The notes: generated by a model not told the origin, from the sequence alone. DNA of 64,000 nucleotides from Nitrosopumilus sp. (GCA_965197525.1 OZ240211.1:2146165-2210164); one strand, 5' to 3'; counted from the first letter of the stretch, positions 2,576-13,028 are shown. Numbers and translations are program-made.

Positions 2576-2679
2576 GTCTTTTCCTCTGTCATAGTAGATA
2601 AAATCTGTTATGCGTCATCATAACATGTTCTTTTTCCCCAAACATATCAGTTATATGATGATCATGATAGTGTATGTTA

Positions 2680-2991
2680 ATGGGAAAACGTCAAGTCAAA
2701 AATGAGAGTGCATTAAAAGAGATTCGGCTACCTGAAGAAGGCGAACTATTTGGGCGTGTATTAAAGATGCTTGGTGGCGAAAACATTATGATTAAATGCG
2801 ATGACAATATCACTCGATTAGGACGAATTCGAGGCAAGCTAAAGCGGAGAGTCTGGATTCGGGACAATGACATCGTCATCATCGCTCCTTGGGATTTCAA
2901 AGCCACTGAACGCGGTGACATTATTTGGCGATTTACTCTTCCTCAGGTACAATGGTTAAAAGAGAACGATCATATACCAAAAGACTTTTAA
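2680..2991 (+). CDS. eif1a: Translation initiation factor aIF-1A
   Basis: GRIRGKLKRRVWIRDND..IAPWDF...GDIIWR signature. Confidence 0.95.
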   Translation: MGKRQVKNESALKEIRLPEEGELFGRVLKMLGGENIMIKCDDNITRLGRIRGKLKRRVWIRDNDIVIIAPWDFKATERGDIIWRFTLPQVQWLKENDHIPKDF

Positions 2992-4734: not shown

Positions 4735-5630
4735 CTATTCTGCACTGTACTCTTGACCTGTTTGACTATCTGTCACCGTCTTGCCAGCAGGCGGCATCTT
4801 TCTCTTAAATGCCTGTACCGGAGTCTCTAGATTGTCCCAGTCAAGTGACATATGCGGTCTGTTGTAGTTGTACCATTCCATGAACCGTTCCACGGGATCC
4901 TTTGCAGATGCGGTGTAAAACGGTCCTCCTACACTAGAGTTCTCTGTTGTACCACGTCGAGTCTTGCCAGCTGAGGCATCTTCAAAGTGGCGTAGTTTGC
5001 GCTGTATCTCTCCGTGCAGACGTTCTAGTTTACCATTTGTCTGTGGATGTCGTACACGTGCCAATATGTGTTTGATGTAGTTCCACCAGTCTTGTTCAAA
5101 TTTGGAGGCACCCTTCTTCTTGGCCTCAGACTCTGTGGCATAGAACTGGGTACCGCGATCTGTTTTGCAGGCTTGCCGTGATTTTTTATGGCCTCATCAA
5201 GTATTAGGGCGTTTTCTGTAGTTGCCTCTGCAAATACCCCAAAACCAGTCACAAAATGAAATCCTGGTAACATATGAGCCATCTGCCATCGTCAAGCTGT
5301 TTGAAATCAGTATGCCATAGGGAATTGGAGTAAGTTGTTCCCACCTAACCCACTTGCGCCTCTTGCTCTTGTTTGGACTGGCATCTCATAAATCTTTCAA
5401 TACTTTGTGTATAAAGTTGTGCGCAATATACATTCCTACAGATGATCTTATCGCTCCAAGGTTGCATCGAATCTCGTTTGCTATGCTGAGAGAATCACCG
5501 AGTGTTCTAGTCGTTGCACTCTTTTTGGGTCTTCCCATTGGGGCAGGTTGTCTGCATCTTTGTATCTCTTTGCTTTTGAACCCATGTTCATCTTTTATCT
5601 CTCTGTTACTGGCAGTATTCTTGCGTTTCT
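4735..5630 (-). pseudogene. Degraded IS481-like DDE transposase
   Basis: Frameshifted fragments RRKWVRWE, LWHTDFKQLDDGRW, HPQTNGKLERLHGEIQ, WYNYNRPHMSL. Confidence 0.8.
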
Positions 5631-6170: not shown

Positions 6171-6692
6171 ATGAACATAAACGTCCCTGCAAACAAGGTC
6201 AAACCCCTGCCATTTAGGGTAGAAAAGTTTGATTACAACCGGTACTATATTGATCATCCCGTAATCAAAGGCGTCTTAAATGTAGGGAATCTTCTAAACA
6301 ATGTTGGTATGATACCTGTTGATATGATTCCGCCTAACAAAATGCCGCCTGAAGGCATTGTAGTAGGACTGAGTTTTCAATCCGTTGTATCGTTTACCAA
6401 CTATGGAGAACGACATGTTGGTTCAAAGAAACTACCCTTGCCTCAAGAGATGGCAAAGATGAAAAAACAAGAGCTGACAAACTACCTGGTCCAAGAAGAA
6501 AATCACGAACCTTGGAATCACTATGTGCTATCTAATGCACCTCAAAAACTCTTGAAGACTAGAACGATGCTGCTTAAAGTGGAATGGTTAGTTGACTATT
6601 ATAACAATCTTGGAGATCCCTATCTTTTAGTCAATCATAATACCAGTCACAGTATATCTAATATTGATTCACCTGACCTAGATATGCGTTAA
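6171..6692 (+). CDS. Hypothetical protein
   Basis: 173-aa ORF co-oriented with the downstream helicase; no family recognised. Confidence 0.65.
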   Translation: MNINVPANKVKPLPFRVEKFDYNRYYIDHPVIKGVLNVGNLLNNVGMIPVDMIPPNKMPPEGIVVGLSFQSVVSFTNYGERHVGSKKLPLPQEMAKMKKQELTNYLVQEENHEPWNHYVLSNAPQKLLKTRTMLLKVEWLVDYYNNLGDPYLLVNHNTSHSISNIDSPDLDMR

Positions 6693-6938
6693 CTTTTCTT
6701 TGAAATTGTGCCTTGGTCATTATACGTGCAGGTTTGCATCATTATGATCCCTCTCTTTATTTTCCAACCATGTCCTAATCCAGTGCGTTTTAGTTCTCAT
6801 ACTCTACCATTTTTTGTTTAATTGCCTATCTTGCGCATTCTCAAAAAGGATCACACAAGTGATAATATATGTGACTATTATTTCACATTCAATAATGTCC
6901 TACCACAACAAGATCACATTACAAGGAATGCGATACCG

Positions 6939-8606
6939 ATGACGTTTTTAGATAACTTTCCTCTAAAATATTCTCCTAGATTGATTCAAAAAGACGTCAT
7001 AAACCAAGTTGAATCTGCAGTAAAATCAGGGTTTAAAAACATCTTGTTATGCGTTCCTACCGGCGTTGGAAAATCTCATATCGCAGTCGCTGTCGCAAAA
7101 TCATTAGGAACATCATTTATCGTTACAGCCCAAAAAATATTACAAGATCAATACACAAATGATTTTAGTTTCATTTATCCGATGAAGGGTAAATCGAACT
7201 TTCCATGTATTGCAAACTATGATACAAACGACATATCATACGAACTTGCAAAAAATGATCCCAATCTCTCATGCACTCTTGGAACGTGCTCGTGGGAGGA
7301 ATCCACAGAATACGGCAGCAAAAAAACTCAATATTGCAAATTCAAACCAAAGATAGGCTCTTTTCCTGTATCTGATGTGGGAACAGAGGATGAACGGATT
7401 GGTGAGCCTGATGACCAGATGTGTTACTATTACAATCAAAAGTATCAGGCATTACACGCAACGCATGCCTTGTTTAACTATTCTTCTTACTTTCGGACCA
7501 GGCTATTTAGCCAAGGGATTGATGAGCTGCTGCAACGAGATTGCTTGATAGCTGATGAAGCACACGAGATCGAAGATCAGATAATCGGATACATTGGATT
7601 TGATATCAGGCCGCGATTTTTAGAGGACGTTGGGATGAAACTAGACGATTTTGTTATAGATGAGATTGACGGCATGCTGGAGTTATTGGATGGTCTGGGT
7701 ACAGCATACACCAAAAAAGTCAACCGACTTGTAAGTGATGATGACAAACGTGCCCAAGCATTCAGAAGACGAAGAGACAAGATTGATACATTATTCTACG
7801 AGATCAAAGATAACCCTGAAAACTTTGTGATTCAAGAGTCAAAAGGATTCTCAGAGAATACAAAGATGGTATCAGTAAAACCAATTGAGATAGGCAAGTA
7901 TGTAGGTGCATTCTTTGATCGCCCTCATCAGATCTTTATGAGTGCTACAATAAACCGTCAGATGTTTTGTAGAACCATGAACATTCCTGAAGACGATTGT
8001 GCATTTATAGAGGTGACAAAATCACCATTCCCAGTCAACAACCGCCAGATACAGTTTCACAATATCCGTAAGCTGAATTACCGATCAACTGATCAGGATT
8101 ATGGTGCAATGTTTGCTAAAATCAAAGAGATTCTAGAGTTACACCCTGATGAAAAAGGATTGATTCTCACCACTACAAAGAAACAATGTGAGGATATCTC
8201 AAACTATCTGGGTGATAGGATTGTAGTTGCGCATGAGGGCGTTGATGGAAAGAGAGAGAAGATTCTAGAACATCATAGACAGACTAGGAATCCTGACGTA
8301 CTTGCCTCTCCGTCATTTTGGTATGGTGTTGATCTTAAAGACGATATATCTCGTTTCCAAATCGTATTGAAGACCCCCTATCCATCTATGGGTGACAAGC
8401 GAACCAAAATCAAATCCGATCGCGATCCGTTATGGTATCAAAACAAGACTGTGGAAAAACTATTGCAGGGTTTTGGTCGTTCTATCAGAAATGACAAGGA
8501 TTATGCCGTAACCTATGTGTTAGATGGGTCGGTAATACAGTTACTGGAACGAATGAGAAAATTTGTTCCAAAAGCGTATTATGATTCGTTGGGGTGGGAG
8601 CGCTAA
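6939..8606 (+). CDS. SF2 helicase, DinG/Rad3(XPD)-like
   Basis: Q-motif PRLIQ, Walker A PTGVGKS, DEAH box, SAT motif III, FWYGVDL, QGFGRSIR motif VI; Cys residues after motif Ia may bind Fe-S. Confidence 0.88.
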   Translation: MTFLDNFPLKYSPRLIQKDVINQVESAVKSGFKNILLCVPTGVGKSHIAVAVAKSLGTSFIVTAQKILQDQYTNDFSFIYPMKGKSNFPCIANYDTNDISYELAKNDPNLSCTLGTCSWEESTEYGSKKTQYCKFKPKIGSFPVSDVGTEDERIGEPDDQMCYYYNQKYQALHATHALFNYSSYFRTRLFSQGIDELLQRDCLIADEAHEIEDQIIGYIGFDIRPRFLEDVGMKLDDFVIDEIDGMLELLDGLGTAYTKKVNRLVSDDDKRAQAFRRRRDKIDTLFYEIKDNPENFVIQESKGFSENTKMVSVKPIEIGKYVGAFFDRPHQIFMSATINRQMFCRTMNIPEDDCAFIEVTKSPFPVNNRQIQFHNIRKLNYRSTDQDYGAMFAKIKEILELHPDEKGLILTTTKKQCEDISNYLGDRIVVAHEGVDGKREKILEHHRQTRNPDVLASPSFWYGVDLKDDISRFQIVLKTPYPSMGDKRTKIKSDRDPLWYQNKTVEKLLQGFGRSIRNDKDYAVTYVLDGSVIQLLERMRKFVPKAYYDSLGWER

Positions 8607-8758
8607 TCTGATCTTGATTAAAAGTCAACAGTGTGCCTAACTTGAAATGATCAAATATGTAAATATTGGCACGCCATCTTGAGATTGTTTCAAGTCCAGT
8701 TTTAATAACTCTGTGACACATTTTAAAGATACTAACTATCTTATATGATAAACGCCTA

Positions 8759-9469
8759 ATGCGAATGTCTGATATGGTAGTTAGCTATGAGAATCTTGTA
8801 CCCGAGCCTAAGAGCCGATTTGTAAACATTCTGTGCAGTTCATGTGATTCACCTAGTGTCATTTTTACCATGACAAAGAGTGTCATAAATTGTAAATTCT
8901 GTGGAAACGTCATAACAGAACCCACTGGTGGTCAGGCAAAGATTTTTGGGCGACTGCAAGACGTAGTCGATGATCTACCTCACATCCATATCAAAACCAT
9001 TACACAAGATTCAAAGAAGATACTCAAAAAACTATTACTTGATTCTATGATAATACACAAGATGACCAACAACTCATCTGGACAGATATTTGTTAATGAT
9101 GTCTCCAATTACAACCTTTGTTTGATTGTCTTAGATAGAATACTGATTGAAACCATTCACATGGAGAAACAGGAGTATGATGTCTCCCTGACTAAATCTG
9201 ACATTATTGAAAAGTTAGAGAGAATAGGGCCTGTTGAAACTATTAAAGTAGATCATGCATCACTAGATATGATTGCAGCACGTGAGTTATGTGACTCTAG
9301 AAAGTATGTCAACAGCAATGACGTTGGTCTTTCAGCCACTGATTGCATGTTACTTCAAATGCATCTGAAAGGGGCAGGTGATCTGGTTACCCATGATAAG
9401 ACTCTTATCAATGCTGCTGAGAGCGAAGGACGTCCATTAACATATGATTGTGTTGTATTCCCAAATTAA
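8759..9469 (+). CDS. Fusion of a ribosomal protein S27e-like Zn ribbon and a PIN-domain nuclease
   Basis: N-terminus PEPKSRF..CSSC..CKFCGNVITEPTGGQAKI matches the S27e pattern; C-terminus has PIN acidic residues (LLLDS, LIET, LSATD, VTHD). Confidence 0.75.
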   Translation: MRMSDMVVSYENLVPEPKSRFVNILCSSCDSPSVIFTMTKSVINCKFCGNVITEPTGGQAKIFGRLQDVVDDLPHIHIKTITQDSKKILKKLLLDSMIIHKMTNNSSGQIFVNDVSNYNLCLIVLDRILIETIHMEKQEYDVSLTKSDIIEKLERIGPVETIKVDHASLDMIAARELCDSRKYVNSNDVGLSATDCMLLQMHLKGAGDLVTHDKTLINAAESEGRPLTYDCVVFPN

Positions 9470-9541: not shown

Positions 9542-9901
9542 GGTTCTGTCTAATAAATGGGAATATAGCGTAAAAATTATTTTATATAAAATCACTTTTT
9601 TAGTTTTGAAAAGAAGACAAATCATATTAGACACATTCACATTGCAGGAAAAAGAGACGGAGATAACAACAACAAGATGGGGCGTCTAAACGGTGAGATA
9701 AGAGATTGTGAAAAAGTGTTTAGAGGTCTAAAAAAGTTTGATACGCCTCTTATTGATGGCATGAAAACATATTACAATTTCACAAAGAAACACGGGTCTT
9801 TGAAAGGAAAGACACCAGCAGAAGAAGCTATTGATTCAGAATGCGAGTTTGCACAAGCAAAATTCAGAATCAAATTTAGGTCTCTATAATCCGACAGAAC
9901 C
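9542..9901 (+). mobile_element. Internally deleted IS6-like element (MITE-sized) retaining the transposase C-terminus
   Basis: Ends GGTTCTGTCTAATAA (9542) and TAATCCGACAGAACC (9887-9901); fragment DNNNKMGRLNGEIRD..YYNF..HGSLKGKTPAE; no TSD seen. Confidence 0.7.
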
Positions 9902-10159
9902 AAATTTAAAAATATTGTAATTGTATAGTTTTTTGAAGTTCATGACTACAATAAGAAAATTTACGCTCAAATTGCATATCTCATAAAACAGATAGTGATG
10001 ATTGGTTGATATCCTGTGCGTATATTCTAGTTTACTTCAAAAAACTACACAGTCACAAAATATTTATAAACTATGCATATATTTTAGCAATATAATGATC
10101 TTTTCTAGCCTCGATTTGCACATTATGTTTCTTAATTGTACTCAAAGTGCGCAAGTATC

Positions 10160-13028
10160 ATGACTAAACGTAGCATCTCTTTTACTCTTGGCAGCCTGTT
10201 CATGCTGTCTGCGGCAATAATCTTTCTTAACTTGGGGTTGTTTGCATCAGGCACGGATTTGATAGAAGATGGCCAACATACCCACACCTTAAATTTTGTA
10301 AATATTGCACATGCCCAATCAGACGAACGTATGGAATCTGAAACCTATCCATCACCTGCAAAGCAGCTGAAAGACGGTGTCAACATACATGACATCCAAT
10401 GTAACGACTCGCGAGAACTTTACATTCGACAATCACAAATGCCTGTCTGTCTTTATGATGAGACATTTAATTCTATGCAAGGCAGAGGTATAGAACTTAC
10501 ACCTGCAACTCCATCATCACTGTCATCAATTGATATATTTACGCCCGAAGAGACACAATGGCTGGCAGACAATCCTGTCATACGCGTCTCCTTTGATCCC
10601 GGATGGACGCCAATAGAGTACGCTGACGAATCCGGCAACCTTCAGGGCATTACTTTGGACTACATTGCAGAGTTTGAGGAAATCTCAGGTGCAGACCTGG
10701 CACCAGTCCCTGCAGCAGATACGTGGGCTGATGCATTAATGGCAATCGAGGAGAGAAACGCAGACATCATGTACATGGTAGCCTCCACGCCTGAAAGGCT
10801 GGAATACATGAGCTTTACATCGCCACACTCGCCACACTACGGTCAAGACTTCTATGGTGTCCCTGAGTAACACCCCTCTGAATATTGACGATGAGGGACT
10901 TAGACTTGCCACAATTAACGGCTACGCAATAGAATCGTGGCTTGATGAGAATTATCCTGATACAGAGTACGTCTCAGTAAACAATTTTGCCGAGGCCTTT
11001 GATCTTCTTGCAGTAGGCGGTGCTGATGCGTTTGCCAGCACGTGGCAGGTAGCTGTCCACCATGCAAAGATGTCCGGGGTCGGCAATGTGTACAATGCAG
11101 GCACTACAGGACACCAGTACGATCTTACCGTGGGGTACAGAAACGACATGCCTGTTCTGGGATCCATAATGCAAAAGGTCTTGGATCAGATTCCACAGGA
11201 AAAGATTGACAGTTGGTATGATGTGTCCACATCCACCGACGACATATACACATCCGAAGAGGTGCAATGGCTGGCAGACAATCCTGTCATACGCGTCTCC
11301 TTTGATCCCGGATGGACGCCAATAGAGTACGCTGACGAATCCGGCAACCTTCAGGGCATTACTTTGGACTACATTGCAGAGTTTGAGGAAATCTCAGGTG
11401 CAGACCTGGCACCAGTCCCTGCAGCAGATACGTGGGCTGATGCATTAATGGCAATCGAGGAGAGAAACGCAGACATCATGTACATGGTAGCCTCCACGCC
11501 TGAAAGGCTGGAATACATGAGCTTTACATCGCCACACTATACGGTCAAGACTTCTATGGTGTCCCTGAGTAACACCCCTCTGAATATTGACGATGAGGGA
11601 CTTAGACTTGCCACAATTAACGGCTACGCAATAGAATCGTGGCTTGATGAGAATTATCCTGATACAGAGTACGTCTCAGTAAACAATTTTGCCGAGGCCT
11701 TTGATCTTCTTGCAGCAGGCGGTGCTGATGCGTTTGCCAGCACGTGGCAGGTAGCTGTCCACCATGCAAAGATGTCCGGGGTCGGCAATGTGTACAATGC
11801 AGGCACTACAGGACACCAGTACGATCTTACCGTGGGGTACAGAAACGACATGCCTGTTCTGGGATCCATAATGCAAAAGGTCTTGGATCAGATTCCACAG
11901 GAAAAGATTGACAGTTGGTATGATGTGTCCACATCCACCGACGACATATACACATCCGAAGAGGTGCAATGGCTGGCAGACAATCCTGTCATACGCGTCT
12001 CCTTTGATCCCGGATGGACGCCAATAGAGTACGCTGACGAATCCGGCAACCTTCAGGGCATTACTTTGGACTACATTGCAGAGTTTGAGGAAATCTCAGG
12101 TGCAGACCTGGCACCAGTCCCTGCAGCAGATACGTGGGCTGATGCATTAATGGCAATCGAGGAGAGAAACGCAGACATCATGTACATGGTAGCCTCCACG
12201 CCTGAAAGGCTGGAATACATGAGCTTTACATCGCCACACTATACGGTCAAAACCACCTTGGTGTCGCTAAATGACACCCCTTTGAGCATGGATGAGGAAC
12301 TTAGACTTGCCACAATTAACGGCTACGCAATAGAATCGTGGCTTGATGAGAATTATCCTGATACAGAGTACGTCTCAGTAAACAATTTTGCCGAGGCCTT
12401 TGATCTTCTTGCAGCAGGCGGTGCTGATGCGTTTGCCAGCACGTGGCAGGTAGCTGTCCACCATGCAAAGATGTCCGGGGTCGGCAATGTGTACAATGCA
12501 GGCACTACAGGACACCAGTACGATCTTACCGTGGGGTACAGAAACGACATGCCTGTTCTGGGATCCATAATGCAAAATACACTGGATCATATCCCTCAGG
12601 AAAGGATTGATTACTGGTATGATGCAGTAGCACAGACAACAGACGACACGGCCGAACTGGAATCAACTGTAATGGGGGTCGTTGACGATACCATCGCACT
12701 GTACAACTCCGATCCCTCAAGCGCCTTTGAGAAGATTACCTCTATGGAGTTGACCAATCCGCATTATCCATTTGTTCTTGATCCTCTTACCGCCACAGTT
12801 GTGGCACACGGCTCATTTCCTGAACGTGTAGGCGAAACTTCCATAGCCCTTACCGAGTCAACCACACCGCTTGAGGAGATTCTCTCTAGTCTGCAGAAAG
12901 ACGGCGATAGCATATGGGCAGAATACCTGTTTACAAATCCCTCGACTGGAACAGAACAGCTAAAGCGGTCGCTGTATGTGTTGCATGACGGTTACATAAT
13001 CGGATCCGGATACTATACATCGTCTTAA
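10160..13028 (+). pseudogene. Exported protein with three tandem solute-binding (PBP type 2, BvgS/EvgS-like) domains and a C-terminal single Cache domain, frameshifted near 10830
   Basis: N-terminal hydrophobic segment; WLADNPVIRVSFDPGWTPIEY three times; YPFVLD..VAHG..WAEY..NP..HDGYIIGSGYY Cache pattern; CGCCACACT duplicated at 10821-10838, net +7 nt. Confidence 0.8.
10556..12575. repeat. Three near-identical tandem units of about 702 bp (starts 10556, 11265, 11967)
   Basis: Offsets of 709 and 702 bp read from the sequence. Confidence 0.95.

Follow-up and report, generated by a model that had tools for sequence, protein, structure and literature searches.

We analyzed a stretch of 64,000 nucleotides (the window, in what follows) from Nitrosopumilus sp. 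(GCA_965197525.1, OZ240211.1:2146165-2210164), in which a single open reading frame (ORF) codes for a ribosomal protein S27e (eS27) domain fused to a PIN-type ribonuclease domain. The frame is uninterrupted both in the ORF list and in the sequence, and it divides into a complete eS27 zinc ribbon, a short linker and a VapC-like PIN domain (Table 1). The source genome consists of one contig of 2.21 Mb and is 99% complete. The organisms concerned are ammonia-oxidizing Nitrosopumilaceae known only from metagenome-assembled genomes (MAGs).

Table 1. Coordinates of the S27e-PIN gene, its parts and its neighbors, counted from the first nucleotide of the window unless a genome is named (res, residues; aa, amino acids)
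Feature	Position	Strand	Basis or remark
Whole ORF: eS27-like domain, linker, PIN domain	8759..9469	+	236 aa plus stop
Complete eS27 (S27e) C4 zinc-ribbon domain, res 17-71	8807..8971	+	Pfam, NCBIfam, fold
Linker, res 72-88	8972..9022	+	Low pLDDT, low conservation
VapC-like PIN domain, res 89-233	9023..9457	+	Fold, family profile, acidic residues
Catalytic acidic codons	D95 9041-9043; E131 9149-9151; D195 9341-9343; D213 9395-9397
Putative TATA-like promoter element, cttatatgat	8740..8749	+	About 25-30 nt upstream of ATG 8774
Fusion in genome G028	G028:C1:1693729-1694379		L018/L027
DinG/XPD-like helicase	6822-8606	+	PADLOC typeIV_DinG 200 bits; Helicase_C_2
173-aa protein, no family	6171-6692	+	Precedes helicase
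Integrase-core (rve_3) fragment	4735-5064	-
aIF1A	2674-2991	+	Pfam eIF-1a, 72.5 bits; 6 kb upstream of fusion; syntenic with L006

The S27e pattern that a preliminary description of this DNA had claimed for the N-terminal 60 residues is present as described, with the motifs PEPKSRF (residues 15-21), CSSC (26-29), CKFCG (45-49) and EPTGGQAKI (54-62) and all four zinc ligands (C26, C29, C45 and C48). Pfam Ribosomal_S27e (PF01667) matched residues 17-64 with 50.5 bits (cut-off, 24.5; E 1.7e-13), and the generic zinc-ribbon families of Pfam all gave E values of 0.002 or higher, i.e., 1,000-fold or more worse. An AlphaFold model was built on 19 relatives, with a mean predicted local distance difference test (pLDDT) of 72. 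In this model, residues 17-71 matched archaeal eS27 (7zhg_W) with a Foldseek E value of 8e-7 and a TMt of 0.84, and the VIA comparison with the same Pyrococcus abyssi chain gave Z 8.7 and a root mean square deviation (rmsd) of 1.4 A over 55 residues. Since these residues align to residues 11-65 of the P. abyssi protein, we are dealing with the whole archaeal S27e and not with a zinc knuckle alone. Hence, Pfam, Foldseek and VIA all score the N-terminus as S27e and not as a generic zinc ribbon, the alternative that the preliminary description had proposed to check. The domain is 33% identical, over 58 ungapped residues, to the canonical S27e of its own genome, and it is a diverged but complete eS27 paralogue.

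The C-terminal half alone matched no Pfam family and reached the VapC model of NCBIfam (TIGR00028) only at E 0.17. Its fold is nevertheless that of a PIN domain. The model (pLDDT 80-90 in this part) aligned to a VapC of Mycobacterium tuberculosis (5x3t_B) with VIA Z 11.1 and rmsd 3.1 A over 128 of 137 residues, and to VapC20 (5wzf_B) with Z 11.0. PAE0151, AF1683 and Pyrococcus horikoshii VapC4 followed with Z values of 9.6-9.9, dozens of VapC/PIN chains scored above 8, and Foldseek added matches to 2fe1, 1w8i and 1v8p. The family profile leads to the same place. PF01850 was matched weakly by 13 of 19 relatives (best E 8e-4), and a profile of 33 family members (A3) found in the PDB the PIN protein of Archaeoglobus fulgidus 1o4w (E 5.5e-5) and VapC 7by2 (E 1.3e-3), with the DTN, E, S-x-x-D and T-x-D motifs of A3 and 1o4w in register. 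The broader A3 was needed to reach PIN; a profile of close relatives (A1) retrieved eS27 chains only. The four acidic PIN residues that had been noticed earlier in this half correspond to D95, E131, D195 and D213, with VapC-like spacing. All four are invariant in the close relatives (alignments A1 and A2), and among 33 distant relatives D95 and E131 are still invariant and D195 and D213 are at least 90% conserved. With its catalytic tetrad intact, the PIN domain is apparently active.

Both domains are joined by a linker of about 17-20 residues. The pLDDT falls below 50 at residues 73-83 and residues 72-90 are the least conserved stretch among the orthologues, so the linker is probably flexible. 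Among seven orthologues, identity amounts to 56-82% in the S27e part, 41-77% in PIN and, leaving out the closest pair, 26-44% in the linker.

Short-read contigs from three studies cross the ORF entirely, without indels inside it. Contig X1 is identical to the ORF region and may come from the source sample, while X4 and X5 are strain variants about 94-95% identical (66 and 74 substitutions over about 1.2 kb); the indels of these contigs are confined to the intergenic region upstream of the ORF. Because contigs of independent origin span the gene in this way, the idea that reads might resolve it into two separate ORFs can be discarded, and the fusion is not an assembly artifact. The true start is probably the third ATG, at 8774 (MVVSYENL...), where the orthologues P0002, P0003 and L006 begin at the equivalent position. 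Upstream of it, there is the putative TATA-like element of Table 1, and the orthologues in L007, L009, L010 and L018 have similar A/T-rich "CATATTA"-type motifs at the same distance. From these starts and this element, the product would probably be 231 amino acids long and have its own transcript; the TATA-like element suggests that this is monocistronic and possibly leaderless. Among the sequencing runs listed for the locus, there was no RNA run.

The same architecture recurs in other Nitrosopumilaceae, and the relatives with named records are in Nitrosopumilus/Nitrosopumilaceae MAGs. A profile of the PIN domain only detected the family in 8 of 301 Nitrosopumilaceae genomes, and five of the 301 carry the S27e-PIN fusion, i.e., the source genome (G000) and G177, G287, G014 and G028. 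Two more fused genomes (L006 and L008) raise the number to at least seven, and the metagenomic proteins P0005, P0006 and P0020 bring it to ten or more fused lineages. Most genomes that carry the fusion exceed in size those of relatives lacking it. In P0007 and P0010, the annotated start falls inside the S27e domain, but these are gene miscalls, as the frame is open upstream with ATG, TTG or GTG starts. Searched against 1.84 billion representative proteins, the PIN profile gave 50 clusters, and we consider that they make up a small PIN family known so far from Nitrosopumilaceae only. In most of its scorable representatives, an N-terminal tail of 40-100 residues contains 25-38% Lys/Arg; a double CxxC at the C-terminus occurs in at least six, and three are S27e fusions. 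Most scorable members thus carry a putative RNA-binding appendage, a pattern in keeping with a targeting role for the N-terminus of the fusion. The viral contigs searched encoded no relative, and in the metagenome contigs searched we found no further fusion, only three relatives with the PIN domain alone.

Canonical S27e stands alone, with a length of about 65 amino acids. A search for close stand-alone relatives of the fused S27e domain gave no candidate with enough shared words, but the word filter used makes this weak evidence. We also looked at other long S27e proteins, 13 matches once the 8,000 best candidates had been scored. The six that were read fully had a C-terminal S27e in over-extended gene calls, i.e., they were gene-call artifacts, and the rest resemble L44e-S27e read-throughs or overlapping calls, judging by precomputed Pfam labels only.

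The genome of the window also keeps a canonical S27e of 65 amino acids, directly downstream of rpl44e (G000:C1:~1481863), which answers the question of a separate rps27e raised by the preliminary description; the rpl44e-rps27e position is thus occupied by the canonical copy and not by the fusion. In other genomes with both versions, the S27e model gave similar scores for the fused and the canonical copy (63.9 versus 66.1 bits in G177, 63.0 versus 56.7 in G014 and 60.1 versus 58.5 in G287). Taking 39 canonical S27e proteins for comparison, with 15 columns at least 80% conserved, the fused clade keeps 11 of the 15, and two more are V-to-I changes. Synonymous sites were saturated in nearly all pairs, and we used amino acid identity and the nonsynonymous substitution rate (dN) instead of dN/dS; in distant pairs, the dN of the S27e part is about half that of PIN. 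The fused S27e domain is therefore constrained, yet it has a residue signature of its own. We built a tree of 49 S27e domains, in which the ten fused ones all grouped in one clade (support, 97/90) and the canonical Nitrosopumilaceae copies formed a separate one (98/87); the tree has few columns and does not settle the deeper branching order. A single clade for all the fused domains indicates one old, maintained fusion, followed by many losses or some transfer.

The most telling case is G028, which belongs to the same family and a different genus (a single high-GC contig of 2.0 Mb, 99% complete). PF01667 has only one match in this genome, the fusion, and searching it with the canonical S27e protein at E <= 10 gave only noise beyond the fusion. 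At the syntenic site (L037), rpl44e abuts a convergent nucleotidyltransferase-like gene with no room for S27e, while in G000 the S27e gene sits between these two. The canonical rps27e has been deleted in G028, which leaves the fusion as its sole S27e homologue. The other four genomes of the genus have kept the stand-alone S27e and lack the fusion, and S27e is present in 61 of 61 sampled Thermoproteota genomes. Three options remain for G028: the fusion supplies the eS27 function, or is processed to free S27e, or eS27 is dispensable.

Two other observations were made in this genome. An ORF in L033 that came up at E 0.03 is not a ribosomal S27e; it codes for 156 amino acids with an unrelated N-terminus and a merely similar zinc ribbon. 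It is a low-GC ORF (L033:1195-1662, plus strand; G028:C1:~1062617-1063084) with the ribbon CNECG...C..C...PT.G behind 110 unrelated N-terminal residues, possibly a further case of a ribbon derived from S27e, here in a foreign gene. In L018, the gene coding for ABCE1, the ATPase that recycles ribosomes, starts 27 nt past the fusion stop on the same strand, and this short spacing makes it possible that both are cotranscribed in G028. The ABCE1 linkage was seen in G028 only and was not found in the window or in the other loci searched, so we do not take it as a general feature.

The reading we favor, with moderate confidence, is that the protein is a nuclease directed at the 30S subunit or at rRNA and not a classical toxin. 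It is favored because the eS27 domain is complete and the most constrained part of the protein, the PIN family typically bears appendages, no antitoxin gene is found and G028 keeps only the fusion. The eS27 module would direct the nuclease to 16S rRNA or to the 30S subunit, binding at or near eS27's own site on the solvent side of the platform/body, and the tethered PIN domain could cleave rRNA or emerging mRNA from that position. In the small subunit, eS27 sits where the hepatitis C virus internal ribosome entry site makes contact, together with eS1, uS11 and eS28, which implies that it is surface-exposed at the platform (PMC9932298). Given this exposure on the platform side, a short flexible tether could be enough to bring PIN close to the mRNA exit or to the 3' end of 16S rRNA. 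Its likely role would be in the turnover of ribosomes or mRNA, in quality control or in a shut-down under stress, with no toxin-antitoxin module involved. While the domains are securely identified, we infer ribosome binding, substrate and physiological role alike.

Several observations weigh against this reading. The fusion is rare among the 301 genomes, so its role is not essential in most relatives. The S27e equivalog of NCBIfam (NF001629) has a cut-off of 70 bits, which neither the whole protein (60.6) nor the isolated domain (63.5) reached. A Gln that is invariant in 39 of 39 canonical S27e proteins (column 22) has changed in the fused clade (it is S33 here), as has the Gly of CxxCG, and the common Ser-His pair is Thr-Met here; with these changes, the binding surface of the fused domain may differ from that of the ribosomal protein. 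In addition, what G028 suggests comes from one genome, where eS27 could be dispensable or the fusion could be cleaved to free S27e.

The loss of the invariant Gln and other common residues would also fit a different scenario, in which the ribbon is a generic RNA-binding or regulatory module, swappable with the Lys/Arg tails and ribbons of the paralogues, and PIN has free RNA (tRNA, mRNA or rRNA precursors) as its substrate, at a distance from the eS27 site. Paralogues with a PIN about 50% identical indeed replace S27e by a basic tail (P0011-P0018) or add a C-terminal zinc ribbon, and most relatives dispense with the fusion. Even so, we find this scenario rather unlikely: the eS27 fold has been kept at full length and is under stronger constraint than the rest of the protein, the domain does as well on the S27e model as bona fide ribosomal copies and, in G028, it was the canonical gene that was lost and the fusion that stayed.

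The absence of any other S27e from G028 could be accounted for in yet another way, with the fusion as a bifunctional precursor or an in-cis assembly factor. Its eS27 part would join the ribosome, and PIN would act once in 30S maturation, like Nob1 or Utp24, or be removed, as ubiquitin is from the eS31 and eL40 precursors. Utp24, a PIN nuclease that takes part in small-subunit biogenesis in 90S particles, is among the structural matches (Z about 8.5), and yeast eS27 joins the subunit early (PMC9932298). However, the VapC matches outscore Utp24, and the genome already has its own canonical Nob1 (PIN_6, 64.4 bits); searching the genome with PF17146 found this separate gene only (G000:C1:644805-645065) and not the fusion. 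Besides, most relatives manage without the fusion, and the linker is variable and without a known cleavage motif. All this makes a precursor or assembly factor very unlikely.

The preliminary description had proposed a ribosome-targeted toxin or abortive-infection effector, and here the genomic context is informative. Such a protein would be a VapC-type toxin or defense effector that attacks the ribosome once infection or stress activates it. The best structural matches of the PIN domain are in fact VapC toxins, and VapC20, a nuclease that cuts the sarcin-ricin loop, is among them. The patchy distribution could be read in the same sense, and so could the surroundings of a basic-tail relative, which has several small ORFs in a row next to it, close to a CARF-like gene. 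There are also insertion sequence or integrase fragments near the fusion, namely the rve_3 fragment at 4735-5064 and an ORF at 9677-9889 (plus strand) without a Pfam match, whose terminal motif we take to be transposase-like. In other studies, contigs of strain variants part from the window just past 9486, directly downstream of the fusion, and with these mobile-element pieces nearby the downstream stretch looks like a strain-specific insertion or a variable region.

What is missing is a partner. The upstream gene, the DinG-like helicase, leaves a gap of 152 bp in which no plus-strand ORF of 40 amino acids or more is found. Comparing nine loci, no small ORF was conserved upstream or downstream of the fusion, even at 30 amino acids and E 1e-3, and larger neighbors were shared with just one locus, that of L006, the closest relative (75% identical) and the only one with synteny. 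As no neighbor, small or large, is common to the nine loci, a VapB-like partner seems to be lacking. Elsewhere, the neighborhoods are housekeeping ones, with eS17, a KEOPS subunit, THUMP and Sua5 next to one locus, dTMP kinase in G014 and ABCE1 in G028. PADLOC gave no match for the fusion at E <= 0.01; only the neighboring helicase matched, to generic DinG models. Of 81 family genomes, 55 have such a helicase, and in G028 and G014 hundreds of kb separate it from the fusion. For this reason, and because synteny is limited to L006, we rejected a three-gene module made of the 173-amino acid protein, the helicase and the fusion. Adding that no relative was found on the viral contigs searched, the proposal of a toxin or abortive-infection effector is not supported by its context, and we regard it as very unlikely.

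The targeted nuclease that we prefer can be compared with three known kinds of protein. It shares with eS27 (PF01667, COG2051) the C4 zinc-ribbon beta fold and the PxPxSxF, CxxC, CxxCG and PTGG motifs, with a Pfam score above the cut-off. It differs in being a paralogue that is not next to rpl44e, that has lost the invariant Gln and that has a C-terminal extension of 165 residues. To the VapC-type PIN proteins (PF01850; VapC20/VapC26, PAE0151 and AF1683), it is similar in fold (Z 9.6-11.1), in the four acidic residues and in their spacing. In contrast to them, it has no VapB-type antitoxin gene, does not match PF01850 and carries an N-terminal RNA-binding-like module. With Nob1, which makes the 3' end of 16S/18S rRNA, it has in common the pairing of a PIN nuclease with a zinc ribbon, and it is likewise a candidate for the platform side of the small subunit. 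Nevertheless, the order is reversed (S27e first and PIN second, as the preliminary description had pointed out), the ribbon is a whole ribosomal protein and the PIN domain is not of the PIN_6 type.

RNases that work on the translating ribosome include Bacillus subtilis Rae1 (PIN/NYN-like) and RelE, both of which enter the A site as free factors; to our knowledge, no enzyme of this type is built from a ribosomal protein. Ub-eS31 and Ub-eL40 are natural fusions of ribosomal proteins, in which the ubiquitin is N-terminal, non-enzymatic and cleaved off before function. Outside these eukaryotic ubiquitin fusions, ribosomal proteins are, as far as we know, almost never fused, and we know of none fused to an enzyme. 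The claim that this fusion had not been described before agrees with our searches: no paper combining S27e with a PIN domain was found in the open-access literature, and neither S27 nor ribosomal proteins appear in the comprehensive classification of PIN domains. Each of the two domains is well known, and it is their combination that is undescribed in the searchable literature.

If the eS27 module docks at the eS27 site, a nuclease would come to lie close to the mRNA exit and the 3' end of 16S rRNA, on the platform side of the 30S subunit. Translation and RNA cleavage would then be coupled in a new way in archaea, a group in which mRNA surveillance and ribosome turnover are poorly understood. 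A bolder version, which we consider somewhat unlikely, is that the fusion is a genuine alternative small-subunit protein at the eS27 site, giving a built-in endoribonuclease to a subpopulation of the ribosomes or, in a G028-type symbiont, to every one of them. Translation and RNA decay would then be hard-wired to each other in archaea, and the protein would be the first of all ribosomal proteins to have an enzymatic nuclease domain. G028, which keeps only the fused copy, makes the presence of the full-length protein in ribosomes directly testable.

A few observations in the window and in the loci of the relatives are worth recording. Downstream of the fusion, two overlapping ORFs of 244 and 724 amino acids (window 10136-13028, plus strand) contain tandem, near-identical repeats of about 230 residues of a solute-binding domain (SBP_bac_3), and a break near 10854-10870 may reflect a frameshift or faulty assembly of a repeat. 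In G287, an unrelated small PIN-like ORF of 140 amino acids (L015:778-1197, minus strand) lies about 300 nt downstream of the fusion (L015:1495-2169). Genes with TPR repeats (L072:1484-2395, L005:7034-7921 and L019:2423-2872) adjoin three distant members of the PIN family, one of which is the basal S27e-PIN protein P0020. We treat this linkage as no more than a lead, since TPR genes are common and no TPR orthologue was found beside the fusion of the window. One member of the PIN family, P0057, is itself a TPR-PIN fusion.
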